The notes under the pieces are model-generated. The model ran no database searches. It worked only from the letters and a program-made list of their open reading frames with translations, and was not told where the DNA came from. The position numbers and the translations under genes were made by a program. Positions 15,614 to 36,934 of a DNA stretch of 64,000 bases are shown here, piece by piece (the stretch's first letter is position 1; every line of letters starts with the position of its first letter). The stretch spans positions 27,244 through 91,243 of the IMG/VR virus record IMGVR_UViG_3300028831_000232; one strand, 5' to 3'. The stretch is from a virus.

Positions 15614-15788
15614 CGTCCGGCTCCCGGTCTACGAGGTGCTCGATCACGAGATCGGACAGCTTGTTGGGCGTGGCCGCCCGCAGCATGGCCGTGCAGCTGC
15701 AGACGCAGAAGTAGCGCCCCTGGTCGTCCTTCTGGAGGGGGGTCATCTTGTGACCCTCCCGAAGGCGTGGCGCCGGCTTGTCAGCCAT
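15600..15788 (-). CDS. Small Cys/His protein
   Basis: H...CVCSC...H; GGAGG RBS. Confidence 0.6.
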   Translation of the reverse strand: MADKPAPRLREGHKMTPLQKDDQGRYFCVCSCTAMLRAATPNKLSDLVIEHLVDREPDDGEG

Positions 15789-16017
15789 GCTGCGTTCCTC
15801 CATCGACCGGGGTGGCCTTCTGCATGACGAAGGCGCCCGTCTCGACCATGAGTTTGAACGCCTTCTCCAGGCTGATCTTCTTGCGGGCCGCCAGCAAACG
15901 CAGGTCCCTGATCAACTTCGGGTCCTCGATCTCGCCGTTCATGTAGACGGCGGGATTGCCGTCCGGGTCCTCGCCCAGCGTGACGTGGAAGTTCTCGTAG
16001 CCCTTCTTAGGCGCCAT
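15781..16017 (-). CDS. Hypothetical protein, C-terminal VDGGTQ tag
   Basis: MAPKKGYENF...PVDGGTQHG. Confidence 0.65.
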   Translation of the reverse strand: MAPKKGYENFHVTLGEDPDGNPAVYMNGEIEDPKLIRDLRLLAARKKISLEKAFKLMVETGAFVMQKATPVDGGTQHG

Positions 16018-16237
16018 TGGAGGACACCATCGAGTCGGTGTAGACGCGCACCACGATGGTGTCGTAGGCCCCGCCCTTCTCGGACTTCCGAGCGGTGCGC
16101 TTGGCGCCGGCCGCCGCCATCTGATGGGCCAGCTTGGCCGGGATCTTGAATGTGGTGACCGTCGGTGCGCTGCCATCTCGTGGCTGGTGGCGGATCTCCA
16201 GCTGCGCCAGCTTGAAGGACTCGATGTTCTGTGCCAT
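16007..16237 (-). CDS. Hypothetical protein
   Basis: AAGGAG RBS; MAQNIESFK... Confidence 0.6.
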   Translation of the reverse strand: MAQNIESFKLAQLEIRHQPRDGSAPTVTTFKIPAKLAHQMAAAGAKRTARKSEKGGAYDTIVVRVYTDSMVSSNGA

Positions 16238-16277
16238 GCCTATCCTCTCCTTGCCCAATTGACGTTCATGTACATGC

Positions 16278-16466
16278 TCATGGCTTCCTCAGTGTCCTCT
16301 TGACGACCCGCTCGGGCTGCTGCTCTTCGTAGTGGTGCGGACATTCGCAGACGTAGGTCTGACCGTGCTGACCGGTGTAGGTGTGACGACACAGGTGGTG
16401 CAGGGCCGGCGGGTGGCCGGGCTGATCGTTGCACCAGCCGGTAATGAAGGGTGGCTTGTCAGACAT
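16278..16466 (-). CDS. Cys/His hypothetical protein
   Basis: GWC...HHLC...CECPHH. Confidence 0.6.
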   Translation of the reverse strand: MSDKPPFITGWCNDQPGHPPALHHLCRHTYTGQHGQTYVCECPHHYEEQQPERVVKRTLRKP

Positions 16467-16514
16467 TGCCTCGCCCCAGATTTCGCTGAGCATGCTTCTG
16501 GAGATCCGGCTGGC

Positions 16515-16721
16515 TCATCCGATCAGCTCCTGCAATGCGGTTAGCCGCTCCTTGTAGCGGCCCACCAACTGCAGCGCATGCGCTCGTTCAGCATCCGACA
16601 AGGTGCCGACATCGACGTATCCGTCGTACGCCTTCTGGGTCAGGGTCACGGCCTTCTCCAGATGACGGTGGGCCTCGGCCGTCCGCTCTGCCGGTGTGCG
16701 GTCCTTCGGTGAGCGGGGCAT
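16515..16721 (-). CDS. Hypothetical protein
   Basis: TGATG-coupled, MPRSPKDR... Confidence 0.55.
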   Translation of the reverse strand: MPRSPKDRTPAERTAEAHRHLEKAVTLTQKAYDGYVDVGTLSDAERAHALQLVGRYKERLTALQELIG

Positions 16722-16918
16722 CACCCGATCATCCCCAGCACCTGCCACGGCTCCACGAGGGCGATGACCTCTTCGTCGTTGAGCATCCCGTTCATCAGCT
16801 CCTGGGCCGGCCGGTGGTCAACAGCGAAGGTGACGGTGCGACCGTCCTCCAGGGACGTGCCCCGGAATACCATCACGCTGCCCTCGTTCCGCACGATGGA
16901 GACAACTTCGATTTCCAT
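16721..16918 (-). CDS. Hypothetical protein
   Basis: AGGAG RBS; MEIEVVSIVRNEG... Confidence 0.6.
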   Translation of the reverse strand: MEIEVVSIVRNEGSVMVFRGTSLEDGRTVTFAVDHRPAQELMNGMLNDEEVIALVEPWQVLGMIG

Positions 16919-16919
16919 T

Positions 16920-17324
16920 TCAGCTCCTCTGGGTGTCGCCATCGATGGCCGAGGCGAACAGATAGGGGGCGCCGGTCCTGGCCGCCCAGAATTGCGTGAT
17001 GAGGGACTCGACCCGATCCTGCACCATGCGCCGGCCGGCCTTCGGCAGACGGTGTCGGCGCACGAAGCCGTTGACGATGTAGGTGACCAGGCTCTCCCGG
17101 TCGCCGGCCTTGATGTACTGGACGCAGCGGTCGCAGGCCGCCCAGTCGCCGTCGGAGCCGATGGTGGGGTCGTCGCTGAAGACGAACGTCTCGGCCGGGC
17201 AGCTCCAGGGCGCCGACAGCGTCTGGCAGAAGTCGCAGGACCGGATGCGGTCCTTCCGGCGGCGCATGTTCCGGCCGTCGGCGCCCTGGTAGATCTCGTA
17301 GTCGTTGGCGTCCGGGCGGCTCAT
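16920..17324 (-). CDS. CxxC...CxxC protein, C-terminal IDGDTQ tag; paralog of 18861-19223
   Basis: CDFC...DGDWAACDRC...AGDRESL. Confidence 0.7.
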   Translation of the reverse strand: MSRPDANDYEIYQGADGRNMRRRKDRIRSCDFCQTLSAPWSCPAETFVFSDDPTIGSDGDWAACDRCVQYIKAGDRESLVTYIVNGFVRRHRLPKAGRRMVQDRVESLITQFWAARTGAPYLFASAIDGDTQRS

Positions 17325-17584
17325 GACGGCGGCCCGTACGGGTCGAAGGTTTCGCCCATGCACTCCTCGCACCACTCCTCGGGGCAGCTGGCGAAGGCGC
17401 GGGCCAGGGCCAGCGTCTGGTGGGAGCAGACGCCGCCGTGCTCGTCGCAGACGGTGTTCCAGCGCCCGCCCTCGGGGTCCAGGCCGGCCGGCTCGGCGTC
17501 GAGCACGAGGACGAGCGTGCCGGTGGAGCGGGCGCGGGTGGCGTAGCGGCAGCCGGCGTACTGGGCGGCAACCTTGGCGCTCAT
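17321..17584 (-). CDS. Cys/His hypothetical protein
   Basis: RWNTVCDEHGGVCSH...CEEC. Confidence 0.65.
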   Translation of the reverse strand: MSAKVAAQYAGCRYATRARSTGTLVLVLDAEPAGLDPEGGRWNTVCDEHGGVCSHQTLALARAFASCPEEWCEECMGETFDPYGPPS

Positions 17585-18558
17585 CGGAGCTGCCCCTCCA
17601 CCAGGGCCACGAACTCGGCCGGCAGCTCCTCGGGCCGGCTGATGGCACTGACCCGCAGGAGCATCTCGGCCTTCGTCAGGGCGGCCGTAGCGGCCTGCTG
17701 AGCGCCGCCCAGGGCCACCATGACCTCCTGGGCCACCCGGAGGCCCACCCGGCCTGCAGCGGCCACCACAGCGGCTGCAGCGGGGTTGGAGAGCTTGACC
17801 CGCCAGCTCTTGTCGCTCGGCTCGAACCGGGCGCCGGCCTCCTTGATGGCGCTCTTGGCCTCGCCCCAGTTGCTGACCCCGCCGATGTTGAAGACGACCT
17901 CATCGTTGATGACGATGCCGTGGACCCGCTTGGCGGGATCGGCCGCCTTGGCCGGCTCGACCGTCAGGGCCTTCTCCAGCCAGGCGTCGGCCTCGGCGTC
18001 TTCGACCCGGAAGCCGTAGGTGGTGACCACGGCGGCGTGCTGGGCGTTGAGGCGCTCGGGAGCGACCCACCAGACCTTCGGCCACACCTGGCCGTCGAAG
18101 GTGGCGCCGGCCGCCTTGAGGGCGGTGCGGATGGCGTCGCCGCCCTGGTAGGGGTACTCGAACTCGACCCGGCCGGCGGGGCACTCCTGGCGGCCGGTGA
18201 CGAAGCGCACGAAGCGGCGGCTGGCCGCCTTACGCTCCCGCTCGAACCGGCGGGCGTCATCGCGGGCGTCCCGGTTGGTGGGCAGGCCCCTGGCCTCCCG
18301 CACGATGTCCAGCTCGGCCATGTCCACCCCGGTGTAGGCGAGGATCTGGCGCTTGTAGGTGAGGGCGATCCGGGCGGCCTCGGCGTGAACGGCCTCGGTC
18401 CAGCTCTCGAACGGCTCGGCGGCGATCCGGCGGCCGAACATGGTGTCCTGGCCGTTGAAGCCGACCCCGTCCTCGGTGACGGCCCCGTCGCAGTTGGAGG
18501 CCACGGCGCAGATGCCGTGGTAAACGGCCAGGCGCTGGGCTTCGATGGAGAGGGTCAC
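17581..18558 (-). CDS. Stand-alone helicase N-terminal module with two HARP-like repeats
   Basis: CDGA..EDGVGFNGQD..FG motif; LKAAGATFDG..KVWWV and IKEAGARFEPSDKSWRV repeats. Confidence 0.6.
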   Translation of the reverse strand: MTLSIEAQRLAVYHGICAVASNCDGAVTEDGVGFNGQDTMFGRRIAAEPFESWTEAVHAEAARIALTYKRQILAYTGVDMAELDIVREARGLPTNRDARDDARRFERERKAASRRFVRFVTGRQECPAGRVEFEYPYQGGDAIRTALKAAGATFDGQVWPKVWWVAPERLNAQHAAVVTTYGFRVEDAEADAWLEKALTVEPAKAADPAKRVHGIVINDEVVFNIGGVSNWGEAKSAIKEAGARFEPSDKSWRVKLSNPAAAAVVAAAGRVGLRVAQEVMVALGGAQQAATAALTKAEMLLRVSAISRPEELPAEFVALVEGQLR

Positions 18559-18752
18559 AGCGCCCACCCGGCCTTGACCTCGGCCCTGGGGGTGACCAGG
18601 GTGACCTTGGCGGCCGTGACCACCATGCGGATGCCGTCGGCGTCGTAGGAGACGAGGAAGGCGGGGTCCGAGCGCAGGGCGCCCCAGACGATGGCCTTCC
18701 GGCCCTCGAACTCGATGAGGTCGCCCTCGTGGATGGCGGGTGCTGTTGTCAT
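18555..18752 (-). CDS. Small beta-barrel-like hypothetical protein
   Basis: IHEGDLIEFEGRKAIV; directly after dyad site B. Confidence 0.6.
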   Translation of the reverse strand: MTTAPAIHEGDLIEFEGRKAIVWGALRSDPAFLVSYDADGIRMVVTAAKVTLVTPRAEVKAGWAL

Positions 18753-18784
18753 GTTCTCTTTATCGCCCATCCGGGGGTCCGACT

Positions 18785-18810
18785 GCAATAGTCCAGGCCC
18801 AAAACCTTGC
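18785..18810. promoter_or_regulatory. Dyad site B (GCAAT-N16-CTTGC)
   Basis: gcaatagtccaggcccaaaaccttgcg versus gcaagaggacaggcccaaaatcttgcg at 14431. Confidence 0.55.
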
Positions 18811-18860
18811 GTTTTCGTGGGGCGAATCGGGCATTCCTACCGCCCTGGAGCGGTAGGCGG

Positions 18861-19223
18861 TCAGTTCCATCGGGCCTGGGTGGAGCCGTCCACCGGAAAG
18901 GCCGGCTCGCCCCGGTAGGGCCGGCCCCGGCGCTTGGCGTTCCAGAAGCCCTGCCACATCAGCCGGCGCCACTCCTTTTCCGGCCCCGGCTCGACCGGGT
19001 CCATGAGGTCGGCGCGGGCCAGGAGGCCCTGGCGGTCGCCGGCCTCCACCAGCTTGAAGCAGTCGTCGCAGAAGGCCCAGTACCCGTCGTCCTGGTAGCT
19101 GCTCATCCGGGGGTCCGGGGAATTCGGCAGATCGAAGCCGAACGGCTCGATCTCGACCGTCCACATGATGGCCGGCCAGCCCCGGACGTAGCAGGCGTCG
19201 CACTTCACCACCCGGCGGATCAC
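18861..19223 (-). CDS. CxxC...CxxC protein, C-terminal VDGSTQ tag; paralog of 16920-17324
   Basis: CDAC...DDGYWAFCDDC...AGDRQGL. Confidence 0.7.
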   Translation of the reverse strand: MIRRVVKCDACYVRGWPAIMWTVEIEPFGFDLPNSPDPRMSSYQDDGYWAFCDDCFKLVEAGDRQGLLARADLMDPVEPGPEKEWRRLMWQGFWNAKRRGRPYRGEPAFPVDGSTQARWN

Positions 19224-19615
19224 CGCTGCGTCTCCCCGTCGATGGTGGTGATCCGCAGGGCGGGAGCGGTGGCCGGCGCCGGCTCCAGGGCGGCGGCCTC
19301 GGCCACTGTGAGGGTGATCCACTGCCGGGTGGGTTCCTTCCGGCCGGCCAGCTTGAACAGGCCCTCGAAGTGGAGGTGGTCGCCCAGGGTCATCTGGCCG
19401 GACCAGGCCGGATGATCCTCGGCCAGCTCGACACTGCCCGGCAGGCCCTCGGGCCGCGTGCAGAGGACGTGGAAGCCATCGGGATCCAGCCGGCGGATAA
19501 ATTCCCAGCCCGGCATGTGGTCCCGGTCCTGGCCCTCGCTGTCGTCCTCCCGCTTGACCCTCTGGATGTCGGCGGTGGTCGCTACGAGCGCCCCGGCGAT
19601 GGTCACTCCTTGCAT
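19220..19615 (-). CDS. Hypothetical protein, C-terminal IDGETQ tag
   Basis: AGGAG RBS; first gene of leftward unit. Confidence 0.6.
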   Translation of the reverse strand: MQGVTIAGALVATTADIQRVKREDDSEGQDRDHMPGWEFIRRLDPDGFHVLCTRPEGLPGSVELAEDHPAWSGQMTLGDHLHFEGLFKLAGRKEPTRQWITLTVAEAAALEPAPATAPALRITTIDGETQR

Positions 19616-19687
19616 GGCCCGGCTCCTATGTCCCAACGGCGTGGTATTTCTGTCTGGGCGCCAGCATACCGCCTCGCCAGGGTCGCA

Positions 19688-19771
19688 GGGAAGAGTCTTC
19701 CCCGCAAGGCTCGAGCGCTAAAGTCTTGACAGCCATCGTACGATGTGGTCGGTGGGCAGAGGTCTGCCCAC
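19688..19771. promoter_or_regulatory. Divergent control region: dyad site C plus three palindromes
   Basis: GGGAAGA-G-TCTTCCC 19688-19702; GCAAG-N16-CTTGA 19704-19729; TTGACA; CATCGTACGATG 19734-19745; GTGGGCAGA-GG-TCTGCCCAC 19752-19771. Confidence 0.6.
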
Positions 19772-19789
19772 GTTCCCGAGAGGAGACTC

Positions 19790-21247
19790 GTGGTCACGAA
19801 GAAGCAGGCGGCCCAGGACAACTGGCTCGCCATCAACCGAAAGGGCTTCGCCCAGGTGCTGGCCCAGAAGGGCCGTGCCCGCATCCTGGCCGAGCTGGTG
19901 AGCAACGCCCTCGACACCGAGGCCGGTACGGTCACCATCACCTTCAGCCAGTTCAGCGGCCGGGCCGACATCACCGTCGAGGACGACGACCCCCAGGGCT
20001 TCGCCAACCTGGCCGACGCCTACACGCTCTACGCCCCCAGCACCCGCGCCCATGACCCGAAGAAGCGGGGCCGCAACGGCGCAGGCGACAAGGAAGTCCT
20101 CGCCCTGTGCGAGTGGGCGCAGGTCCGCTCCACCACCGGGGCCGTCGAATTCAACGCCGACGGCAGCCGGGTGGTCACCAAGGACACCAGGGTCGCCGGC
20201 TCGCAGTTCTCGGCCAACCTCAAGATGAACCAGGGCGAGGCCAACGAATTCATCCAGCTCATGCACGAGCTGCTGGTGCCGGCCGGCGTGGCCGTCTGGT
20301 TCAACGATGAGGCCATCGTCTCCCGCCAGCCGCTGCGGGAATTCCAGGCCACGCTGGGCACCGTGCTCCGAGACGCCGAGGGCAACATCTCGCCCACCCG
20401 GCGGAAGACCACCATCGGCCTCTACGAGGTGGCCCCTGGCGAGACGGCCCACATCTACGAGCTGGGTCTACCGGTGGTCGAGCACGATTCCCGGTGGCAC
20501 GTCAACATCGAGCAGAAGGTGCCGCTCGGGCGGGACCGCAACAACGTCACGCCGGCCTACCTGAAGGAGCTGCGGGAGCACGTCCTCAACAACAGCTACG
20601 ACCTGCTGACCGAGGAGGACTCGAAGAGCCGCTGGGTGCGCGACGCCTACGAGGGCGCCACCGACGAGGCCGTGGCCGCCGTGGTGAAGAAGACCTACGG
20701 CGACAAGGTGGTCATGGCCGACCCCTCCGACCGGGAGGCCGTGACCCGCTGCCAGGAGGCCGGCTACACCGTCATCCCGAGCCGAAACCCGTTCCCCGCC
20801 GGCTTCGGTGAGCGCCTGCGGGCGGTGGGCGTCCAGCCGGCCGGTCAGGTCATGCCCACCTTCGTCGTCTCCTCCCCGGACGGCAAGCCGCCCATCCCCG
20901 AGGAGCAGTGGACCGACGGCATGCGCCGGGTGGTCGAGTACTCCCGCCGGCTGCACATGGAGCTGTTCGGCATGAAGCTGCGGGTCGCCATCTTCGACAT
21001 CAAGCACCCCGACAAGCGCTGGCTGGCAAAGACGAACGGCCGGGGCAGCCTGGACTTCAACATCGGGCTGCTGGGCAAGAGCTGGTTCGAGAAGCCGGAC
21101 CAGGCCAAGGTGGACACCATCCTCGTCCACGAGTTCGCCCACCGGAAGGCCGAGTTCCACACCGACGAGCGCTTCTACGAGGAGTGCTGCCGGCTGGGTG
21201 CCATCCTGCGGGAGGTCCCCCTGCGGCTGTCGGACGTGGAGATCTGA
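19790..21247 (+). CDS. GHKL (HATPase_c) ATPase fused to C-terminal HExxH zincin
   Basis: ELVSNALD, VEDDDPQGF, KRGRNGAG boxes; ILVHEFAH; GAGGAG RBS before GTG. Confidence 0.75.
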   Translation: MVTKKQAAQDNWLAINRKGFAQVLAQKGRARILAELVSNALDTEAGTVTITFSQFSGRADITVEDDDPQGFANLADAYTLYAPSTRAHDPKKRGRNGAGDKEVLALCEWAQVRSTTGAVEFNADGSRVVTKDTRVAGSQFSANLKMNQGEANEFIQLMHELLVPAGVAVWFNDEAIVSRQPLREFQATLGTVLRDAEGNISPTRRKTTIGLYEVAPGETAHIYELGLPVVEHDSRWHVNIEQKVPLGRDRNNVTPAYLKELREHVLNNSYDLLTEEDSKSRWVRDAYEGATDEAVAAVVKKTYGDKVVMADPSDREAVTRCQEAGYTVIPSRNPFPAGFGERLRAVGVQPAGQVMPTFVVSSPDGKPPIPEEQWTDGMRRVVEYSRRLHMELFGMKLRVAIFDIKHPDKRWLAKTNGRGSLDFNIGLLGKSWFEKPDQAKVDTILVHEFAHRKAEFHTDERFYEECCRLGAILREVPLRLSDVEI

Positions 21248-21945
21248 TGTACCCCGACACCGCTGACGGCCGCCCCCGCGACCGGATCGAAGCGGCGCTG
21301 TGGCTGCACTCCTTCCTCGACATGGAGGAAGGAGTGCCGGCCACCGAGGCCGAGCGGGCCGACATCGAGCGTGTCCGGCCACTGCACGCCCTCCTGGTCA
21401 ACGGCTTCAAGAGTGAGGGCGCCGTCATGGGCTTCTTCGAGGAGCCGGCCGTAGACCTCCTGCAGCACCACGTCGATCAGCTGGGCTTCGTCAAGCAGCC
21501 CACCGAATTGAAGGGACCGGTGTACGTGGTCTTCGCCAAGCCGGTGGTGGTGGCGACAGACGAGACGGAGCCGGTCTACCTCCACGCCTTCGGCTTCTCC
21601 GACGGCGCTGTGAGCCTCCACAGCATGCGGACGGCCACCACGCCTCCGTCCCTCGACTACTTCTACTGGAAGTCGGGAGAGACGCTTGTGGAGGCCGTAG
21701 AACGGGAGCAGCGACCGTGGGCGCCGACGCTGCAGGTGGCGGTGGCGGCCACTGCCGCCTACCTCATGGATCCCCGCCAGGGCCACATGGCCGTCTCCGG
21801 TCGGTTCAGCGCCGCCCAGCTGCAGCCGATGCAGCGCCAGCTCGGCAAGGCCGGCATCAAGACGTTCATCCCGTACAAGGGCCTGGCCTGCCTCACGGCC
21901 AACCCCGTCTTCATCGACGGCCAGACGCAGAGGAGCGGACGATGA
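21247..21945 (+). CDS. Hypothetical protein, C-terminal IDGQTQ tag
   Basis: TGATG-coupled, 232 aa. Confidence 0.65.
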   Translation: MYPDTADGRPRDRIEAALWLHSFLDMEEGVPATEAERADIERVRPLHALLVNGFKSEGAVMGFFEEPAVDLLQHHVDQLGFVKQPTELKGPVYVVFAKPVVVATDETEPVYLHAFGFSDGAVSLHSMRTATTPPSLDYFYWKSGETLVEAVEREQRPWAPTLQVAVAATAAYLMDPRQGHMAVSGRFSAAQLQPMQRQLGKAGIKTFIPYKGLACLTANPVFIDGQTQRSGR

Positions 21946-23180
21946 GCAACTACCGCTACATCCCGATGCAGTTCTACGACTCGCTGGCCGATGCCAAGCG
22001 AACGCTGAAGGAGAACAGCCTCACGGCACTCCAGCTGCAGCTGTCCCTGCTCGAATGGCTGGAACGCCAGGCATCGATCCCGGCCTACCAGAGCTTCATC
22101 ACCACCCACGGCCACCGGCCGGTGGAGGACGACGCCACCCGCCAGATGCTGGGCGAATTCCTCCACCGCCAGGTGCGGGACATGGCCGGCACCGCCTCCA
22201 CCCACTGGATCAACGACGACATGAGCGCCATCGTCAATATGGCCGCCCTCGACATGAAGCCCTCGGGACTGCGCGCCCCGGACCTGCCGACCGACACCGG
22301 CTGGATGGTCTTCGAGCGACCGGTGCCCCTCTTCTTCGGAGGGGCGGGTGGTGATCCCACCGAGGTCCGTATCGCCGCCATCGGGTGGCAGGTGGGCACC
22401 GTACGGCGGGCGCCGCTGTCGGACGCCGCAGACGGCGCTACAGACCCCTCTGCCGGCCAGCTGGTGCCGGGGGTCAGCTACTACCTCTTCCAGACGGCCC
22501 ATGACGCCGCCGTGCTCCAGAACACCATGGCCGAGCGCCGGGGTGACGAGGTGCGGGTGACCGAGGACGAGATCGTCCGCTCCCAGGGGCCGCTGCCCAT
22601 CTTCGACTTCAGCGGGTGGGCGTACGACACGCCCTGGAACACCGTGTCGGTGGTCAACGAGGAGCAGGCCGGCTACAGCGACGAGCAGGGCGCCCAGTAC
22701 TGCCACGCCGTCGTAGACCAGGCCCGCCGGCTGCTGCTGGCCGCCTGGCGGATCTTCCGGCAGAAGAACATCGTCCAGCGGGACGTGACCGCCCAGCCGA
22801 ACCACCAGCTGCGGAAGCGGGCCGCCCGCGTCAGCTTCACGCCCGAGATCAACGACATCGTCATCATCTCCATGCGGACGACGGTCTACCGGGGCCTGCA
22901 GAAGAAGGCCGCCGAGGCCGCCGCCGAAGACGGCGAAGAGGAACCCACCAGCTGGTACCGGTGCAAGTTCTTCGTCCGGGGCCACTGGCACCCGTACTGG
23001 ACCGGTCCCCGCGTCGATGAGCCGTGCGAGCACAACCTCGTGGAGATCCCCGACTCCGACGACCTGCTCTGCACGCTGTGCGGCCGGACGCTGATCGAGA
23101 AGTACGTGCTGCCCTATCCGAAGGGCAACCCCAACGGGCCGCTGCTGCTGCACAAGCACATCCTCTCCCTGGAGCAGTGA
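21942..23180 (+). CDS. Phage hypothetical protein of the VRGHW family
   Basis: FFVRGHWHPYWTGP...YVLPYPKG motif; small Zn-ribbon insert. Confidence 0.7.
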   Translation: MSNYRYIPMQFYDSLADAKRTLKENSLTALQLQLSLLEWLERQASIPAYQSFITTHGHRPVEDDATRQMLGEFLHRQVRDMAGTASTHWINDDMSAIVNMAALDMKPSGLRAPDLPTDTGWMVFERPVPLFFGGAGGDPTEVRIAAIGWQVGTVRRAPLSDAADGATDPSAGQLVPGVSYYLFQTAHDAAVLQNTMAERRGDEVRVTEDEIVRSQGPLPIFDFSGWAYDTPWNTVSVVNEEQAGYSDEQGAQYCHAVVDQARRLLLAAWRIFRQKNIVQRDVTAQPNHQLRKRAARVSFTPEINDIVIISMRTTVYRGLQKKAAEAAAEDGEEEPTSWYRCKFFVRGHWHPYWTGPRVDEPCEHNLVEIPDSDDLLCTLCGRTLIEKYVLPYPKGNPNGPLLLHKHILSLEQ

Positions 23181-23431
23181 TGACAGAGTACGAAGGTCTT
23201 CCCTTCGAGTTCTACGAGGCGCTGATGCCGGCCCTCACCGACGACATGACCAACGAGGACAAGCAGGCGCTCATCCACCGGGTCCTGGCCGACTGGGACA
23301 AGTCCAAGGACGCCCGTTTCCCGCCCGGCGTGGCGGTGACGAGGGAGCTGGCCGAGCTGCGGCTCGTGGCCTTCACCCGCCGCTGGGCACTGGCCCAGGC
23401 GGCCACCGACGGCGAGACGCAGCATGGGTAA
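23180..23431 (+). CDS. Hypothetical protein, C-terminal TDGETQ tag
   Basis: TGATG-coupled, MTEYEGLPFE... Confidence 0.65.
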   Translation: MTEYEGLPFEFYEALMPALTDDMTNEDKQALIHRVLADWDKSKDARFPPGVAVTRELAELRLVAFTRRWALAQAATDGETQHG

Positions 23432-23687
23432 GGCGAGCCGGCGGAAGCGGGAACGGCGCAACGAGCCGTCGCCCTACTGGAACGAGCCGATCAAGGTCAT
23501 CGGTCAGCCGTCCGGTGAGGTCATTGCCGAATTCACCGATCCCGATCTGGCCCGCCGGTTCAGCCAGGAGATCATGAGCGGCGCGACCAAGGAGGAGGTC
23601 ACCGAATTCGTCAGCAAGGCCATCAGTGAAGAGATCGCCCGGCAACAGGCGGCCAAGGCCGTAGATGGGGACACGCAAAATGGATGA
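23424..23687 (+). CDS. Hypothetical protein, C-terminal VDGDTQ tag
   Basis: MGKASRRKRER... Confidence 0.65.
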   Translation: MGKASRRKRERRNEPSPYWNEPIKVIGQPSGEVIAEFTDPDLARRFSQEIMSGATKEEVTEFVSKAISEEIARQQAAKAVDGDTQNG

Positions 23688-24057
23688 CTACGTGGCCCTC
23701 ATCAAGGAAGCACAGAAGGCCGGCGCCGTCGTCCGGCAGGGACGACGCCATCTCAAGATCACCACGCCGGACGGCCGCCTGATCGTGGCGTCGCTCAGCC
23801 CGTCCGACCGCAAAGCCCACCACAACCTCCGGGCCGAGCTGCGCCGGGCGGGACTGTTGCCCCGTAACGGGTTCCAGCCGACCGAGGAGGAGCAGGTGGT
23901 GCTCGACCAGCTGGTCGATGGCGGCCAGCGCATGACCGAGCTGCCGCCGAAACGCCTACTGGACAAGGGACTCGTCCGGGCCAGCAAGCGGTCCAAGGGC
24001 TGGATGGTCTGGCTCACTGAGAAGGGGAAGAGTACGCAGCCCCCACCCGGCGCTTGA
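23680..24057 (+). CDS. HicA-like (dsRBD-fold) domain protein with C-terminal extension
   Basis: EAQKAGAVVRQGRRHLKITTPDG...SPSD...NLRAELRRAG. Confidence 0.55.
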   Translation: MDDYVALIKEAQKAGAVVRQGRRHLKITTPDGRLIVASLSPSDRKAHHNLRAELRRAGLLPRNGFQPTEEEQVVLDQLVDGGQRMTELPPKRLLDKGLVRASKRSKGWMVWLTEKGKSTQPPPGA

Positions 24058-24271: not shown

Positions 24272-24569
24272 TGTCCCAGTCCTTGATGTCACCGACGGCG
24301 GCGTCGAGGTAGCGGACACCAGCGGCTGCGAGCGCCGCCTCCTCGTCGGGCGCCGCTCCCGTCCACACTCCGACCGCCAGTGACCAGTGGCGGCTGATAC
24401 GGATGCCTACGCCGCTGCCGATTCGGCACCGCTCCTCAATTTCCCGCGCCCAGGTCCGGGTGACGAACCTCGGGGGCCACGGCCACCTTTGGAGGTGCCA
24501 GTAGATCGGGAGCCGGCCGCCTTTGATGTCGGGCACGATGCGAGAACCTCGTCTGCTCTTTCCAGCCAC
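24138..24569 (-). CDS. Hypothetical protein
   Basis: 143 aa; 3' end overlaps next gene by 134 nt. Confidence 0.5.
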   Translation of the reverse strand: MAGKSRRGSRIVPDIKGGRLPIYWHLQRWPWPPRFVTRTWAREIEERCRIGSGVGIRISRHWSLAVGVWTGAAPDEEAALAAAGVRYLDAAVGDIKDWDNGLPQEGTDEGGGNGAGEADCAIAGWTISASHRAVPLPDRPGAL

Positions 24570-24604
24570 TCATCAATTTCAGGGTGAGCGTGCATCCCAG
24601 CCTC

Positions 24605-25393: not shown

Positions 25394-25426
25394 CGGGCCT
25401 CCTGGGTGAAAGAGTTGGCGGGGATG

Positions 25427-26888: not shown

Positions 26889-26922
26889 TAATGCAAGGTC
26901 GCAGAGTGTGACCCTTGCATTA
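26889..26922. promoter_or_regulatory. Dyad site D (GCAAG-N16-CTTGC within a 10-bp inverted repeat)
   Basis: TAATGCAAGG...CCTTGCATTA; lies between an extended -10-like TGGCATAAT and the RBS of the wHTH gene. Confidence 0.65.
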
Positions 26923-26939
26923 TGCCATGAGGGGTGCTA

Positions 26940-28643: not shown

Positions 28644-28670
28644 AATCGGCGTGCTGGGCGTCGATATCGC

Positions 28671-30145: not shown

Positions 30146-30157
30146 TCTGATTCTCCT

Positions 30158-31240: not shown

Positions 31241-31241
31241 C

Positions 31242-31847
31242 TCAGTCGAGCTTGTCGAAGAGGGACTTGAGCCACAGCCGCACGTCCTCGTACGTGGTTT
31301 CCGAGGAGTCGTTGAAGCTCGGCATGGAATTGAAGCCCTTGTCCTCGGCCACGGCCATGTCGAGGAACGCCTGGACGGCCTCCCCCACCCGACGCCGGGC
31401 GGCGTCCAGCTCGGTGTGGCCCTTGACGGCCAGGCCCAGCTCCTGCGTGGCCCGCGCCAGGGCGCCGATGAGGCAGTACTGCTCGACGTGCGCCTCGCTG
31501 TTCCAGGCCGTGGACTGGCCCTTGACCCAGTTCGCCTCGGTCGCCATGAGGGCCAGCATCCGCTCGATGACGAGCCGGATGAACGGCTTGACCTCCTCGA
31601 TCTGCTCCGGGGTCACCAGCTTCGGAGCCGGCGCTCCGTAGTGGTAGTCCGGCCACCCCTCCTGCACCACGCTGTGGTTGTGCGAGCTGTTTCCGCCCAC
31701 GCTGATGTAGGCGCCGTGGTTAGCCGGGTCCGGCACCGCCTGCACGTAGTGGCTGTGGGCGGCGGCGTAGCCGTCAAACGCCTGCTGGATCGAGTGCATG
31801 TGGTTGGCCCACTGCTCCTTGATGCCGAGGCCGCTCTTGTTCGCCAT
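31242..31847 (-). CDS. DUF6197-like protein
   Basis: WVKG...YCLIGAL...FNDSSETTYEDV. Confidence 0.6.
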   Translation of the reverse strand: MANKSGLGIKEQWANHMHSIQQAFDGYAAAHSHYVQAVPDPANHGAYISVGGNSSHNHSVVQEGWPDYHYGAPAPKLVTPEQIEEVKPFIRLVIERMLALMATEANWVKGQSTAWNSEAHVEQYCLIGALARATQELGLAVKGHTELDAARRRVGEAVQAFLDMAVAEDKGFNSMPSFNDSSETTYEDVRLWLKSLFDKLD

Positions 31848-31857
31848 TCTGGTTCTC

Positions 31858-32625
31858 CTAATCGCTGTCGAACGTCATCGTGTAGGTCGCTTCCCAGCTG
31901 TCGCCGTTCTTCAGGGTGACGTTGTGGCCGAAGACGCCGGGATACTTCTTCTTGGCCTCCTCCGTTGCCAGGCCCATCTCCTCGGCCATCTGTTCCTGCT
32001 CCAGCCGCCGGGCGTTGTCCTGGGCCAGCTTGAGCAGCTCGGCCATGACCTTGTCGGGCGGGACCTCGGGACTCGGCTCCTTCACCGAATACCGGCCCGT
32101 CTTGGTGCCGGCCAGGCCGCTGGCCGGGGCGGCCTTGATCTGCTCGGCCGCCTTCTCGATGTCGGCCCAGGTGACCGGCTTGGACTCCTTGATCTTGGAG
32201 GAGTTGAGCCAGGACTGCTGCAGCTCGGCGGCCATCTCCGGGCCGATCTCCTGGGGGATCTTCACGCCCTCGTCCAGCCATTTGGCGAACACCGCCTGGC
32301 CCTGGAGCTTCGGCTTGGCGATGCCCATGAGCTTCTCGAAATCGGAGGCCAGGACGGACGGCTCGACTCCGGTGGGCAGGTCCCCGAAGGCGGCGGCCAC
32401 CACGATGTTGACGAAGAGGTCGATGGCGTGGCGGTACTCGGCGTCGAAGTGGTAGCGCTTCTGGGCGCTCATGCCGTTGACCAGGGCCTCGGTGGCCCGA
32501 CGCCGCGCCCGCTTCTGGAGGCACTGCACAACGATATCGACCAGCTGGCGCTCGCCCTTGTCGAGGGCGTCCCCGAACCCCTTCTCCACGTCCTTGATCA
32601 GCTGGTAGAAGAACTGGCCGTACAC
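31858..32625 (-). CDS. Hypothetical protein
   Basis: GGAGG RBS before GTG; 255 aa. Confidence 0.65.
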   Translation of the reverse strand: MYGQFFYQLIKDVEKGFGDALDKGERQLVDIVVQCLQKRARRRATEALVNGMSAQKRYHFDAEYRHAIDLFVNIVVAAAFGDLPTGVEPSVLASDFEKLMGIAKPKLQGQAVFAKWLDEGVKIPQEIGPEMAAELQQSWLNSSKIKESKPVTWADIEKAAEQIKAAPASGLAGTKTGRYSVKEPSPEVPPDKVMAELLKLAQDNARRLEQEQMAEEMGLATEEAKKKYPGVFGHNVTLKNGDSWEATYTMTFDSD

Positions 32626-32688
32626 GAGATGCCTCCCGATTGGCAAGGCGCCAAGGGTAAACCCTGCCGTCGTCCGGCGCCACCCAAT

Positions 32689-33087
32689 TCAGCTCTTGAT
32701 GACGTAGGCGAAATTGAGGGCCGGCTGGCCCATCCTGGCATCCAGCCGGCGGGCGGCTTCGGGCCGGGAACTGGCCCGCAGGTCCGGCACCCGGAACCGC
32801 CGGAAGCGCCACCGCCGCCTGGATGGCCCGAAAGCGTCCCCGATGGCGCTGTAGAGCTTCGGGTAGAGCGCCTGGGGCACTTCCTGGCCGGCGCACATCA
32901 AAAAGCCTGGAGGGGCCTCTGAGCCGCTCCAGGGGAGGACGGTGCCCGACGGGACGAGGGCGCTGTAGGGGGTCTGGCCTCGGGCCGCTGCCTGGGCCGG
33001 CGTGGGGGCCGCCCAGTCCATCCCCTTGAGCAGCATCGGCATGAAGGGGGTAAGGGCCAGCCCCTTGAGGAAGGTGCGCCTCTCCAT
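32689..33087 (-). CDS. Phage tail collar domain protein with twin-arginine-type N-terminus
   Basis: ERRTFLKG; PSGTVLPWSG..APPGFLMCAGQ..YPKLYSAIG..FG...FRVPDLR. Confidence 0.75.
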   Translation of the reverse strand: MERRTFLKGLALTPFMPMLLKGMDWAAPTPAQAAARGQTPYSALVPSGTVLPWSGSEAPPGFLMCAGQEVPQALYPKLYSAIGDAFGPSRRRWRFRRFRVPDLRASSRPEAARRLDARMGQPALNFAYVIKS

Positions 33088-33096
33088 GGGGCGACG

Positions 33097-33567
33097 TTAA
33101 TCGATGCGCCGGACCCGGTGGAGCGGGATTTTCGCCTTGGTGGCGGCGTAGCCCTCGGCGCTGGCCCGCCATTTGTCGTCGGGGTGGTAGTCGATCTCCA
33201 GGGTGTGGCCCCGCGGCGCCCGAGCGCCCAGGGTGTCGCCGGCCCGGCCCTGGTGGCGCCACCGCTCGTCGGGCGACGCCGAGGCCCTGGTGTAGCCGCC
33301 CCCGCCCGAGGTGGCCTGGAGGTAGCCCTGCTCCTGGGCCGATTTCCACTCCTCGGGGTGGACGACCCGGTAGAGCTTGCTGACCGGCGTGCTCACGGTG
33401 GCGCCGTGCATGCGGACCCGCAGTCCGTCCCGGTGCTCGAAGATCGTGCCGCCGTAGTGCTCGGCCGGGTCGTAGCTGATCGGGTTGGACATCGGCCGGT
33501 GGCCGGCCTCGGAGAGGGTCTTGCCCAGCTCGGCCAGAGCGTCCTCGAATTCCTCGGAGCGGCTCAT
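33097..33567 (-). CDS. DUF952/ADP-ribosyltransferase-like protein
   Basis: KLYRVVHPEEWKSAQEQGYL...TLEIDY. Confidence 0.45.
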   Translation of the reverse strand: MSRSEEFEDALAELGKTLSEAGHRPMSNPISYDPAEHYGGTIFEHRDGLRVRMHGATVSTPVSKLYRVVHPEEWKSAQEQGYLQATSGGGGYTRASASPDERWRHQGRAGDTLGARAPRGHTLEIDYHPDDKWRASAEGYAATKAKIPLHRVRRID

Positions 33568-33571
33568 GGCC

Positions 33572-33781
33572 CTAGCTTTTCACTTTTCCCGACTCGAAAT
33601 TCAGCCAGTCGTTGTGGAGGGCGACGACATGCTCGGCCAATCGACTGCTGTCCACGAGGCCGATCACGATCCCTTCCTCCTCCAACATGGCGTAGATGTT
33701 GCGAAGCCCTTTGCTGCCCAGACGCCAATGGGCGGCGATGATGGCCTTGGAGTCGGCGTCGTTGCGGGCATCGCCTTTCAT
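33572..33781 (-). CDS. Hypothetical protein
   Basis: WRLGSK..RNIY...V..HN. Confidence 0.55.
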   Translation of the reverse strand: MKGDARNDADSKAIIAAHWRLGSKGLRNIYAMLEEEGIVIGLVDSSRLAEHVVALHNDWLNFESGKVKS

Positions 33782-34005
33782 GGGCCGACGTAGGGCTTGC
33801 CCCGGTTGGGATTCGCCATGGCCTCCATGCGGACCTCGGGGGGCCGGGTGTCACCCCAGTTGCGGATCATGCTGCCCTGGCCCAGGCCGGCCCGCTTGCC
33901 GTAGACCTTCTCGGGCTTCTCGGGGGGCTGGTCCGGCCCCGCCCGGTAGTCCTCGCCGGGGAAGAGGGACTGGGTGAACTGGTCTTCGTTCAGGTTGGGG
34001 TTCAT
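33778..34005 (-). CDS. Hypothetical protein
   Basis: MNPNLNEDQF... Confidence 0.55.
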   Translation of the reverse strand: MNPNLNEDQFTQSLFPGEDYRAGPDQPPEKPEKVYGKRAGLGQGSMIRNWGDTRPPEVRMEAMANPNRGKPYVGP

Positions 34006-34016
34006 GGCTGCGTCCT

Positions 34017-34832
34017 TCATCCGGTCCCGCCGTGACTGGGCATGAACGCCCGGTTGAAGAGCATGTCTGCCCGCTCCCGGCTGCCCTGGTTGTACGGCGC
34101 CGTGGAGAAGAGCTGACCCTGGTCGAGAGCGCTGCTCTGCGTGGCCCGGAACGCCTTGAGACGGCTCTCCCCCGGATCCACCCGCTCGGGGTCGTACTCC
34201 CGCCGACCCAACTGCTTCTGCTCCCAGCGGATCAGGGGATGGGCCTTGGCCCCCGCCGCCTTCACCGCTTCGCCGTGGGTCTGGAGAAACTGGCGCGACG
34301 GGGCCAGAGCGGAAATCGAGCCGCTGTCCTCGACGGCGTTGCGGTAGTAGTGGACGCCCTCTTTGGGACTCCAGCGGTTGCCTTCGTCGGGCGCCGGGTT
34401 GGCCGGCGAGCCACCCGGACCCTGCCAGTTCGGCGTCGTTTCGCCTTTGAGCCGCACCGGAAACGAGCGCCAGGGCTGCGGCCCCTCGTCGTAGGTGCCG
34501 GGGAATTTATGGCTGGGACCGAGGTCGCGCCGTCGCTTGTCGGCCGCCCCGAAAGAGCCGACGTGGATACCGGCATTTTTGGCCCCGCCCGTCCGGGGAA
34601 GCTGTTCGCCGTAACGACCGTGCCACCACGTCCTCGGGTCGGCGGCAAACTGGCTGCGGGTCTGCTGGTGCGGCTCCAACATGAATTCGCTGCCCTCGAC
34701 GGAAAAGAGCTGCGGGTTGCGGTGGCGGTGCTCCCGGCCCATGTCGTTCAGGTACTGGCTACGAGCGGGATCCATGAGCTTGGCCTCGGCCGGCCCCACC
34801 TGGGACGGGTCGAATTGCCGGCCGAGCTTCAC
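34017..34832 (-). CDS. Putative ADP-ribosyltransferase-fold protein
   Basis: WWHG...GIHVGS..AA..R...Y.N.VED.GS pattern. Confidence 0.5.
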   Translation of the reverse strand: MKLGRQFDPSQVGPAEAKLMDPARSQYLNDMGREHRHRNPQLFSVEGSEFMLEPHQQTRSQFAADPRTWWHGRYGEQLPRTGGAKNAGIHVGSFGAADKRRRDLGPSHKFPGTYDEGPQPWRSFPVRLKGETTPNWQGPGGSPANPAPDEGNRWSPKEGVHYYRNAVEDSGSISALAPSRQFLQTHGEAVKAAGAKAHPLIRWEQKQLGRREYDPERVDPGESRLKAFRATQSSALDQGQLFSTAPYNQGSRERADMLFNRAFMPSHGGTG

Positions 34833-35173
34833 TGCGCCTGCGCCAATCGCCGGCAGGCCGGGCAGTCGGGACCGGGCGGGGCGTCGGTGGCGTGGGCCTT
34901 CCAGTGCTCGAAGCGGGCCTTGGCGTCGGGGCCGACCTCGATCTGGTGGCCGCTCTCGATGCGACGGCGGGTCTTGGCCCCGATATTCAGTCCCAGGGCG
35001 TTGGTCTGCCAGTGCCGGGCCAGGGTGCCGTACCAGCGCCGAGGGCCTTCGATGAGCGTGGCCTTCTCGCCCTCGTGGCGCTCCAGCTCGGGGTCGTCAG
35101 CGGAGAAGCGCACCACGGCCCGGCCGGACCCCTCGGCAAAGGCCCGCTGCCGGCCGTCGGTGATCCGGGTCAC
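34829..35173 (-). CDS. Hypothetical protein
   Basis: GTGA coupled; C-terminal H...CPAC. Confidence 0.55.
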   Translation of the reverse strand: MTRITDGRQRAFAEGSGRAVVRFSADDPELERHEGEKATLIEGPRRWYGTLARHWQTNALGLNIGAKTRRRIESGHQIEVGPDAKARFEHWKAHATDAPPGPDCPACRRLAQAQ

Positions 35174-35454
35174 CGATCCTCCATGCCGGGCAGCTTCTGC
35201 CAGACGGGCTGGGGCCGGGTCTGGAAATGGTGCTGGAAGATGGGCGTCCTCCACGGTGCGTCGGGGTTGGCCTCGCCGGCCACCCGCCGCCGCCCGGCCT
35301 CTTTCACGTCGGGGTCGAAGAGCGACTGCCTTCCCCCGCCACCGAGGAACAGCCGGCCCTGGGGATGACTCTCGGTGCCGGGCCAGTAGTGCCGCCCGGC
35401 AGCGGCGTCGCGGGCGTGGGCGACGAATTGACGGCCCAGCGCTCGCAGGCTCAT
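35170..35454 (-). CDS. Hypothetical protein
   Basis: MSLRALGRQF... Confidence 0.5.
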   Translation of the reverse strand: MSLRALGRQFVAHARDAAAGRHYWPGTESHPQGRLFLGGGGRQSLFDPDVKEAGRRRVAGEANPDAPWRTPIFQHHFQTRPQPVWQKLPGMEDR

Positions 35455-35489
35455 GAGCGGGAGTCTACGCGACCCCCACCCACGGCCTT

Positions 35490-35702
35490 CTACACGTCGA
35501 AGGTGATGAGCATCTCCTGGCCCGGCTTGAACCGCTCGGCGGCCGTCTCGTTCTTGATGGTCATCTCGATGGAGCCTGAAGGCGTGGCGGCCCAGAACTC
35601 CTTGTTCTCCTCCGACCCCTTGGTGACGGGCTGCATCTTCACCTTGGTGGCCCAGCCGAACAGCTCGATGCTGGTGACGTAGAACTTGGCGACGACGGCC
35701 AT
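35490..35702 (-). CDS. Conserved phage hypothetical protein
   Basis: AKFYV...ENKEFWAATPSGSIEMTI.N..A...FKPGQE..ITF. Confidence 0.75.
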   Translation of the reverse strand: MAVVAKFYVTSIELFGWATKVKMQPVTKGSEENKEFWAATPSGSIEMTIKNETAAERFKPGQEMLITFDV

Positions 35703-35791
35703 GACAGCTCCCTTCGGTGGTGTGGAATTCACGAAGGGGCTGCGACTGGATTGGCTCGCCCACGCCGACCCCGCTCGATCCTACCTCGTGC

Positions 35792-36283
35792 TCACCGACC
35801 CATCCCACGCAGCCCGAATTCACGCCGCCGGCCGATCCGCACGTTGTCGGAAAAGGCCAGAGGCCCGATGGGCGGGGTCTTCCCGCCGACCTTCACCGGA
35901 GCGGTCCCCTTGGCCGTGGTCACGGCCGACTGCTTCGACGGGACCTTCGGCGGCTTGGCCGGGTTGTTCTTGCTGGCCCTCGTGACCTGCGCCCGCCCGA
36001 TCCAGAAATCATGCGGTTCGGGCTTGATGCCGGCATCAAAATTCAGCAGGCCGACCTGGCCGGCTCGGGGCATGAAGTAGGTGTACCGCTTTCCGGCGGG
36101 CCGGTCGGTGAACCGGATCGTCTGAAGATCGACCGAGACATAGGCGCAGTCGATCCCCTTCTCGGCACAGGCAACCCGCACCGCATCGGCGTACATGCAG
36201 TGCCCGGAATCCTTCGGAATAGCGGCATCTCTGATTTCCTCGGTGACAACGAGGTGCAGGCGCGGTGAGCTGTGGACGGCCAT
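35792..36283 (-). CDS. Hypothetical protein
   Basis: AAGGAG RBS; DSGHCMYADA, SVDLQTIRFTD. Confidence 0.7.
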   Translation of the reverse strand: MAVHSSPRLHLVVTEEIRDAAIPKDSGHCMYADAVRVACAEKGIDCAYVSVDLQTIRFTDRPAGKRYTYFMPRAGQVGLLNFDAGIKPEPHDFWIGRAQVTRASKNNPAKPPKVPSKQSAVTTAKGTAPVKVGGKTPPIGPLAFSDNVRIGRRREFGLRGMGR

Positions 36284-36315
36284 CCGTTCTCCTTGTTCGT
36301 GACCCGATGACCGGC

Positions 36316-36344
36316 ATTCTGAGGACCCGCTTCCGGGTCGTCAA
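36316..36344 (-). promoter_or_regulatory. Sigma70-type promoter
   Basis: TTGACG-17 nt-CAGAAT upstream of 36283; spacer contains ACCCG/CGGGT inverted repeat. Confidence 0.55.
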
Positions 36345-36491
36345 CCAGCTCCGCACAGAAGTGGAAGGCATGAAATTCAACCCTCGGTGGCAAGGGTCAC
36401 CGACAAGGATCCCGCACTGATCGTCCTGAGACTTCCCTGGACATCTGGAGTTTTTCGTCGGCTGCGGAGCGTGAAAAGTGTAAGGCCCAGA

Positions 36492-36665
36492 TTATTTTTG
36501 GGCACAGAGATGCCCCGCCCACACCGCCTCGACTTCGCTCTCGGGGGCGTCGCCTGACCATTTCCAGCCGCAGCTGCACCACAGTTTGACCGACTTCCCG
36601 ATCCGGCCCCAGCCCCGGCGGTGATGAATTCGGGGTCGCTCGGGCTTCAGCCGGCGCACGGTCAT
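36492..36665 (-). CDS. Small zinc-finger protein
   Basis: Hand translation MTVRRLKPER...H...WCSCGW...WAGHL; ATGA coupled. Confidence 0.6.
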   Translation of the reverse strand: MTVRRLKPERPRIHHRRGWGRIGKSVKLWCSCGWKWSGDAPESEVEAVWAGHLCAQK

Positions 36666-36934
36666 GTCTGGGTCTGCCCGTCCACGTTGGGGCTGTTATT
36701 CGTTATGAGGTAAGTCGCCGCCAGGAACTCACCGACCTCCCGGCATTTCTGGGCCTGCTGACGCAGATCGCTGCCGAGGTGGTCCCAGTCCTTCTCGGCA
36801 TCCTTCACGAACTCGTCAAGGATTACGGCGGCCAGCAGCAGGCTTCGGGCGTCGTTTTCCAGGCCCACCTTCTGCAAGAACGCCCGGCAGGCGCCGTATT
36901 CGTCCGGCGGCACCTTCTCGTGGAGCACACTCAT
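36662..36934 (-). CDS. Hypothetical protein, C-terminal VDGQTQ tag
   Basis: GGGAGG RBS; ends NVDGQTQT. Confidence 0.65.
   Translation of the reverse strand: MSVLHEKVPPDEYGACRAFLQKVGLENDARSLLLAAVILDEFVKDAEKDWDHLGSDLRQQAQKCREVGEFLAATYLITNNSPNVDGQTQT

Follow-up and report, generated by a model that had tools for sequence, protein, structure and literature searches.

A C-terminal DGxTQ tag on unrelated accessory proteins of one phage lineage and its association with an AcrVA2-like gene

Results

The window, i.e. the whole stretch of 64,000 nucleotides (nt) analysed here, comprises bases 27244-91243 of the 105,637-bp IMG/VR phage record IMGVR_UViG_3300028831_000232, which is rated complete by CheckV. 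Eight of its genes, T1 to T8, encode accessory proteins that carry the peptide [VIT]DGxTQ a few residues in front of the stop codon, and comparison with related contigs shows that such tagged genes cluster tightly around D5, a gene whose untagged product resembles AcrVA2. The genome has a guanine-cytosine (GC) content of ~0.66, and Pfam domain scans of 132 open reading frames (ORFs) of at least 55 amino acids (aa) identified genes of a contractile-tailed phage (sheath, baseplate, tube) alongside PolA, RecA, DnaB, primase, two SNF2 helicases, WhiB, an Rv2179c-like exoribonuclease and two types of anti-defence genes, Tad2-like and Acb2/Tad1-like. This gene content, WhiB and the Rv2179c-like exoribonuclease included, points to an actinobacterial host. 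The tagged genes and their neighbours are listed below.

15781-16017, minus strand: T1, 78 aa, ends PVDGGTQHG; tag codons 15790-15804
16920-17324, minus strand: T2, 134 aa, small CxxC...CxxC protein, ends AIDGDTQRS; tag codons 16929-16943
17581-18567, minus strand: lineage-specific protein of 328 aa near the tagged genes; alternative candidate partner
18861-19223, minus strand: T3, 120 aa, paralogue of T2, ends PVDGSTQARWN; tag codons 18876-18890; followed by a hairpin
19220-19615, minus strand: T4, 131 aa, ends TIDGETQR; tag codons 19226-19240; stop codon overlaps the GTG start of T3
19745-21247, plus strand: fusion of a GHKL (sacsin/Hsp90-like) ATPase with an HExxHx5H zincin; opens the rightward unit, not tag-specific
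21247-21945, plus strand: T5, 232 aa, ends FIDGQTQRSGR; tag codons 21916-21930; predicted AcrVA2 fold, no RGHWH motif
21942-23180, plus strand: D5, 412 aa, AcrVA2-like, untagged, between T5 and T6; best candidate for the partner of the tag
23180-23431, plus strand: T6, 83 aa, ends ATDGETQHG; tag codons 23408-23422; directly downstream of D5
23424-23687, plus strand: T7, 87 aa, ends AVDGDTQNG; tag codons 23664-23678
23680-24057, plus strand: D7, 125 aa, untagged; conserved, closes the rightward unit
36662-36934, minus strand: T8, 90 aa, ends NVDGQTQT; tag codons 36668-36682; isolated copy 13 kb away

We searched both strands with the frame-blind DNA pattern GAYGGNNNNACNCAR and obtained eight matches in the window, the same eight being found in the whole genome, while the reversed control pattern gave no match in either. 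All eight copies are in frame and end 1-4 residues before the stop codon, exactly as listed by the first-pass annotation, which had been made from the sequence alone. At the peptide level [VIT]DG.TQ occurs eight times in the six-frame translation of the genome, each time within 6 residues of a stop. Enrichment over randomised sequence, a check that had been proposed for the motif, was likewise found: against the eight strict near-stop copies, even the looser core D[GA].[TS]Q reached a mean of 0.66 and a maximum of 3 near-stop copies in 200 genome copies generated by a third-order Markov model.

The eight proteins share little besides the tag. After trimming of their tails, BLAST relates only T2 and T3 to each other, in agreement with the single paralogue pair claimed before. 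One clustering merged T6 with T2/T3, and as a separate BLAST links T6 only to its own orthologues, the merger is taken as an artefact of over-long ORF calls. None of the eight tagged proteins could be assigned to a Pfam or PHROGs family, and NCBIfam, which was run on T5 and T2 only, gave none either. The whole-genome search found the motif on no other protein, structural and replication proteins included, so that the restriction to accessory genes reported for the window extends to the entire genome. Across the lineage the consensus of the tag is [hydrophobic]-D-[G/A]-x-[T/S]-Q, located 1-6 residues before the stop.

The tag is conserved as a peptide

Codon and spacing statistics were based on 41 tags from 12 contigs of one phage lineage; where contigs have to be told apart we use short names (G000, L079-L081, L210-L216). 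The first and second codon positions of the tag are nearly invariant (1.1-2.6 bits), and in the Gly, x and Thr codons the four-fold degenerate third position carries ~0.1-0.3 bit. The third position is restricted to C/T in Asp codons and to G/A in Gln codons, as the code requires, whereas all four Thr codons and GGC, GGG, GGA and GGT for Gly are in use. The synonymous variation first noticed in the eight genes is thereby confirmed for the larger set, with third positions varying just as the genetic code allows. The non-synonymous variants are GGN to GCN (Gly to Ala), seen five times, and ACN to TCN or AGY (Thr to Ser).

The frame-blind DNA search recovered in-frame copies only, 8/8 in the genome and 11/11 in L079-L081, so that copies lying out of frame in related phages, named earlier as an observation that would speak against a peptide-level role, were not found. 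Three tagged genes are followed by a terminator-like hairpin with no closely following start, and they retain the tag nonetheless. In the T5 family, where orthologues are only 36-37% identical overall, the ten residues before the tag are unconserved, yet [IV]D[GA]xTQ is kept. These comparisons show that the tag is better conserved than the bodies of the proteins that carry it. Since copies occur in frame only, vary according to codon degeneracy, tolerate Gly to Ala and Thr to Ser exchanges and persist in front of hairpins, the sequence data show selection acting on the tag at the amino-acid level. The first-pass annotation had favoured selection on the peptide over an element resembling a ribosome-binding site, and the codon-phase pattern together with the in-frame-only copies bears this out.

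Read at the DNA level, what follows Gln is for the most part dictated by the next gene, through its ribosome-binding site and start codon. HG, NG and RG correspond to an overlapping xATGGxTGA or xGTGGxTGA of the next gene, RS corresponds to the ribosome-binding site AGGAGC, and a single Thr or Arg in front of the stop corresponds to ATGA or GTGA, respectively. Where the tag stands free in front of a terminator-like hairpin, three different families use x-[RH]-W-N, and the free-standing form thus appears to be ...TQ-x-[R/H]-W-N. The hairpins directly after the stops of such ...WN ends are GC-rich (18820-18860 in the window, after 12374 in L079 and after 3836 in L080) and are probably terminators that close tagged operons. 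For 21 of the 41 tags the Gln codon is separated from the next start by 1-2 nt, and for 10 further ones by 10-11 nt. The distances of 1, 2, 10 or 11 nt, or no adjacent gene, given previously for the window are correct, though they had been described as variable; their clustering at 1-2 and 10-11 nt indicates that the tag and the start region of the next gene are mutually fitted.

Distribution of the tag

The 41 tags are distributed over ~15 unrelated protein families. L079, L080 and L081, which were reached via the GHKL-zincin protein (73-84% identity), contain 6, 8 and 3 tags, respectively, some on orthologues of T1-T6 and others on proteins absent from the window. Orthologues at 35-70% identity retain the tag, and the T7 homologues in L213 (48%) and L215 (42%) are likewise tagged; T8 has no orthologue among the related loci compared. 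The T1 orthologue of L079 ends IDGSTQRA and that of L081 ends VDGQHAG, apparently a decayed tag. Shortened T1-family endings without the x-Thr part were observed at L081:528-761 (VDGQHAG), L211:1344-1583 (KDGQHRAGD) and L214:9768-10004 (VDGQSRSTP); the tag has either decayed repeatedly in this family or exists in a second form.

Outside the lineage the motif is close to absent. Among 29,345 six-frame ORFs of 164 loci, which include 83 loci with a GHKL-zincin homologue at 34-50% identity, there are three singletons, and the DNA pattern is not enriched in five terminase relatives (52-54% identity) with genomes of 72-97 kb. IMG/VR-wide scans with the DNA of DGxTQxxWN-stop and DGxTQHG-stop gave chance matches only, plus a possible stray, L182. 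In 185,579 species genomes DGxTQxxWN-stop had 27 scattered matches, none of them actinobacterial, and hence no host protein was found that the tag might mimic. A word-based homologue search with T5 returned only T5 itself.

The T2/T3 family is large, with 2110 representative clusters at E<=0.001 that are mostly untagged. Among the best 150 relatives, 144 stop ~10 residues earlier, after FWxxRTGxP, and six are tagged. As T2/T3 relatives end earlier and the tag is nearly absent outside the lineage, these comparisons show the tag to be a lineage-specific add-on, an extension of ~10 residues that relatives elsewhere do not have. The family itself consists of ~100-aa CxxC...CxxC proteins without a Pfam entry whose terminal FWxxRTGxP is conserved, and a few of its members are domains of proteins of 326-798 aa.

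Tagged genes and the AcrVA2-like gene D5

Starting from tagged T2/T3 relatives and from D5 homologues we reached seven further contigs. Tagged genes abut the D5 homologue in 10/10 contigs that contain one (G000, L079, L080, L081, L210, L212-L216), with the D5 homologues spanning 100% down to 36% identity. In all eight cases in which it is visible, the gene just downstream of D5 is tagged, and these genes come from at least five different families. In L216, a contig of 11.6 kb without a GHKL gene, D5 and a tag occur together although the genes are arranged differently, and the tag cluster occurs in none of the 83 GHKL loci without D5. It is this tie to an AcrVA2-like gene in their midst, the strongest lead, that the first-pass annotation overlooked.

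D5 is a putative distant member of the AcrVA2 family, an assignment based on indirect evidence. Its Atlas feature score is 0.98, 85 of its 100 nearest clusters are AcrVA2-like, and the Atlas model (predicted template modelling score, pTM, 0.72) matches clusters carrying PF26125 with template modelling (TM) scores of 0.59/0.69. The only Protein Data Bank (PDB) match of the D5 profile is AcrVA2 (7ci1), a weak one (E 0.32) in which VRGHWHPYW is aligned with RRGHWHGYW. In AcrVA2, mRNA down-regulation requires a conserved C-terminal His/Arg motif (H286, R288, H291). The equivalents of AcrVA2 R289, H291 and H293 are invariant in D5 homologues, whereas H286 and R288 align to F and V. The D5 homologues P0239 (46% identity), P0248 and P0249 carry PF26125 in precomputed assignments that are marked weak or faint (identity range 34-46%). 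D5 itself matched no profile in the Pfam and NCBIfam copies searched, of which the Pfam copy may not contain PF26125, and our own AlphaFold2 (AF2) model, with a predicted local distance difference test (pLDDT) value of 46, was too poor to be compared with the three-domain fold of AcrVA2.

We also modelled T5 by AF2, giving a pLDDT of 68 overall and <50 at the tag, which probably lies in a flexible tail. Comparison of the model with 48,161 PDB chains identified AcrVA2 (7ci1_A) as best match with a Z score of 7.2, a value in the range below 8 that may reflect merely a common arrangement, over 168 aligned residues at a root mean square deviation of 5.0; the next row had a Z score of 3.7. A Foldseek search of the PDB with the same model found nothing, so that 7ci1 emerged only in the exhaustive structure search. 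An Atlas search with T5 gave TM scores of 0.61-0.65 to AcrVA2-like clusters, and we take the likeness to 7ci1 as real because of the gap in Z score to the next row and the Atlas match. The modelled fold of T5 is thus that of AcrVA2, while RGHWH is missing from its sequence. The profiles of T5 and D5 are not significantly similar (hhalign probability 6.5%), with a local WMVFxxPV resemblance, and the profile comparison of T2/T3 with D5 was not significant either. The Atlas model of T2 resembles one portion of an actinobacterial cluster of 434 aa whose AcrVA2-like share is 49% (TM 0.67); judged by this fold match only, the T2/T3 zinc-ribbon domain appears to be joined to AcrVA2-like domains in other Actinomycetota.

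The GHKL-zincin was considered as a tag-specific partner and rejected, as its homologues are found in 83 tag-less loci and L216 is tagged in the absence of a GHKL gene on its 11.6 kb. A single co-folding run of GHKL-zincin, D5 and T6 scored 0.01, which weighs neither for nor against binding. The protein combines a sacsin/Hsp90-like GHKL ATPase with a YgjP-like HExxHx5H zincin, and IMG/VR contains 222 confirmed relatives, many of them encoded on phage contigs of 100-460 kb. Such proteins appear widespread, and we know of no function assigned to this fusion.

Further elements of the region

The dyad GCAAG-N16-CTTGC occurs at 14431-14456, 18785-18810, 19704-19729 and 26893-26918 (one mismatch allowed). 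A count of four is not significant, as shuffled sequences contain 2.4 copies on average and 24 of 100 shuffles reach four; those at 14431 and 18785, both located in front of gene starts, are almost identical over the 26 nt. At 37767-38402 (plus strand) a matrixin/snapalysin-like protease with the motif HELGHALGVAH and an apparent signal peptide is encoded, and the same plus-strand cluster contains a gene (39782-40504, plus strand) whose product has a papain-family match (PF00112, E 3e-6, at 40223-40450). The latter was the one papain-family match in the search for readers of the tag, and its cluster is separate from the tagged genes.

Related loci contain further genes of note. L082, a tag-less relative whose GHKL protein is 50% identical, encodes at 12598-12789 (minus strand), beside a KTSC gene, a 63-aa protein that has a Pfam Pup match, ends ...YIQKGGQ and looks like a phage-borne Pup; the window has no Pup counterpart in the matching gap (24320-24604). 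A TROVE (Ro60-like) protein is encoded in L214 (16190-17833) and L083 (20160-21461).

Discussion

As a tentative explanation, to which we give somewhat less than an even chance, we propose that the tag serves for docking or handling and that a single shared partner, for which D5 is the best candidate, recognises it. One lineage of high-GC myoviruses has added the tag to ~15 unrelated small accessory proteins, all of which could then be addressed by the same partner. We favour D5 since short linear peptides are bound in a groove by members of the AcrVA2 family: AcrVA2 has been crystallised with a Cas12a peptide (PDB 7CI2) and recognises LSKT of nascent Cas12a, whereupon the Cas12a mRNA is lost (Marino et al., bioRxiv 10.1101/2022.11.29.518452; PMC13131331). 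The tagged proteins and D5 might form a split system: D5, the sole carrier of the conserved RGHWHxYW effector motif, would accept a changing set of small plug-in proteins, among them T5, with its AcrVA2 fold but without the motif, and the T2/T3 zinc-ribbon domain. A more specific version, which we regard as doubtful, is a split AcrVA2 whose small recognition proteins bind different host (defence) targets and dock by their DGxTQ tails, so that the effector removes the mRNA or protein of these targets. If this were true, a single AcrVA2-like effector would work with many adaptors, which are exchanged rapidly from one related phage to the next.

Several points weigh against D5 as the reader of the tag. 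The AF2 model of D5 is unusable (pLDDT 46), the sequence match to AcrVA2 is weak (E 0.32), and the equivalents of AcrVA2 H286 and R288 align with no conserved D5 residues. T8 lies 13 kb from D5. Other genes co-occur with tags as well, namely those for an SNF2 helicase, a KTSC protein and the 328-aa protein (17581-18567), the latter being present in L004, L079-L081, L211, L212 and L214-L216 and in only one other locus. The linkage of D5 and tags comes from one syntenic lineage and is no set of independent events. Finally, when translation terminates, a tag so close to the stop (1-6 residues) has not yet emerged from the ribosome; any recognition would therefore be post-release, unlike the action of AcrVA2 on a nascent N-terminus.

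Compared with known systems, the AcrVA2/FinQ family (PF26125; 7CI1, 7CI2) shares the RGHWHxYW motif with D5 and the fold with T5, as well as recognition of short linear peptides and a location on mobile elements, its targets being mostly unknown. AcrVA2, however, recognises LSKT at the N-terminus of a host protein that is still being synthesised and whose mRNA is lost as a result, whereas the tag is C-terminal, sits on the phage's own proteins and is repeated on ~15 families; tagged accessory proteins are undescribed for AcrVA2. Sliding-clamp motifs, the acidic tails of SSB, the acidic C-terminal tails of T7 gp2.5 and gp4 and the ssrA/SspB degron likewise place a peptide at the flexible terminus of unrelated proteins, which lets one partner handle them as a group. 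The tag matches none of these sequences (no QL[SD]LF, no acidic-aromatic tip, no LAA), and in contrast to them it need not be the end of the chain, being followed by 1-6 more residues, and is confined to one phage lineage. Pup and ubiquitin-like precursors also have a conserved Gln near the C-terminus and a fixed motif followed by a short variable tail. The comparison with Pup drawn in the first-pass annotation is nevertheless not supported: Pup is one small disordered modifier of ~64 aa ending Gly-Gly-Gln/Glu, whereas the tag has no Gly-Gly, its Gln is never terminal, its carriers are folded, unrelated proteins of 65-232 aa, and the Pfam scans of 132 ORFs found no PafA/Dop-like ligase in the phage. 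Start-associated sequences of Cluster K resemble the tag as repeated short elements just upstream of many starts in actinobacteriophages, but they are DNA or RNA elements that hold the ribosome-binding site and are independent of the upstream frame, whereas the tag is frame-locked, varies synonymously and is present also where no start follows. Of the address label suggested earlier, a lineage-specific label on unrelated accessory proteins is supported; it may be a degron, a docking motif, a packaging signal or a cleavage site.

Other readers of the peptide are conceivable. It is rather unlikely, yet worth weighing, that the tag is read by a host machine, either as a docking motif for a hub protein or as a modification site such as a Thr/Ser-Gln phospho-acceptor of an actinobacterial Ser/Thr kinase, and that the clustering around D5 reflects only a common accessory-gene island. 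The Pfam scans of 132 ORFs detected no FHA, kinase, PDZ, WD40 or ligase domain in the phage and no transglutaminase- or sortase-type reader; the tolerated Thr to Ser exchange is consistent with a requirement for a hydroxyl group, and the tagged proteins are small, fast-evolving and accessory, i.e. of the type that acts on host targets. PknB-type kinases prefer [ST]Q, and we found nothing in the literature on a PknB 'TQ motif'. Reading by the host leaves unexplained why tagged genes abut D5 in every contig, the rearranged L216 included, and why T5 and T2/T3 resemble parts of AcrVA2-like proteins, and no actinobacterial protein family has a DGxTQxxWN end. We consider it unlikely that the tag is a degron or processing site by which the GHKL-zincin or a host protease times or matures the accessory proteins. 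The GHKL-zincin, with its invariant HExxHx5H, heads the rightward unit and adjoins D5 or tagged genes in G000, L079-L081, L212, L214 and L215, and a fixed core with a variable tail of 1-6 residues would suit a cleavage site as in ubiquitin-like precursors. This protein, however, has homologues in the 83 tag-less loci, L216 has D5 and the tag on 11.6 kb without it, and the variable tails are accounted for by the ribosome-binding site and start codon of the next gene. That the tag targets the accessory proteins to the capsid, so that they are packaged in the head and co-injected, is highly improbable; this idea draws on analogy only, as unrelated cargo with one common terminal peptide is the hallmark of such systems. 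The T4 capsid-targeting sequence and encapsulin cargo peptides are analogous, and pre-packaged anti-defence proteins are known. The tagged genes, however, lie in a DNA-metabolism and accessory region beside SNF2, GHKL and AcrVA2-like genes rather than in the structural module, and nothing ties the tag to head genes.

Two further explanations place the function at the gene junction. Promotion of re-initiation on the overlapping downstream gene by the nascent DGxTQ peptide or its codons near termination is very unlikely in our view, even though the next start is 1-2 or 10-11 nt past the Gln codon in 31 of the 41 tags and 1 nt past it in 17 (some with longer overlaps), including 3 of the 8 tags of the window. 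The 8-nt overlap xATGGxTGA is frequent at tagged junctions and occurs elsewhere in 2 of ~130 adjacent gene pairs, and GGNGAN (Gly followed by Asp/Glu) resembles a ribosome-binding site at suitable spacing. Unlike in arrest peptides, though, the number of codons between motif and stop varies (1-6), a downstream start close by is lacking for six to eight tagged genes, three of which end before hairpins, and the full motif is kept even where a separate AGGAG follows the tag. A nucleotide-level junction or start cassette spread by recombination, with the peptide as by-product, has an equally slim chance as the packaging signal. A stop codon inside the cassette would by itself fix the reading frame, TDGETQHG-stop with its overlapping ATG is nearly uniform in more distant relatives, two adjacent copies in L214 are identical across GATGGAGAGACACAGCATGG, and the start-associated sequences of Cluster K mycobacteriophages are a precedent. 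Against this, the best-conserved bases (ACN CAR) lie in the spacer, where no particular sequence is needed, GGAG resembling a ribosome-binding site is unconserved (GGC GAG, GGC CAG, GGC TCC, GCC GAC), variation tracks the codon degeneracy of each amino acid exactly, and the genome and L079-L081 contain no out-of-frame or intergenic copy, the motif being kept before hairpin terminators. The codon-phase pattern of the 41 tags largely excludes such a cassette.

We found no description in the literature of the tag motif or of tagged partners of AcrVA2-like proteins, and a proteome-level tag of this kind is undescribed for accessory proteins of actinobacteriophages. Cells and viruses rely on shared terminal handles where a single machine has to deal with many clients. 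If the handle described here is portable, it could mark which orphan phage genes form one functional system. AcrVA2-like proteins are widespread on mobile elements and, Cas12a aside, their targets and partners are unknown; the array of small tagged proteins around an AcrVA2-like gene provides the first candidate set of partners for this family.

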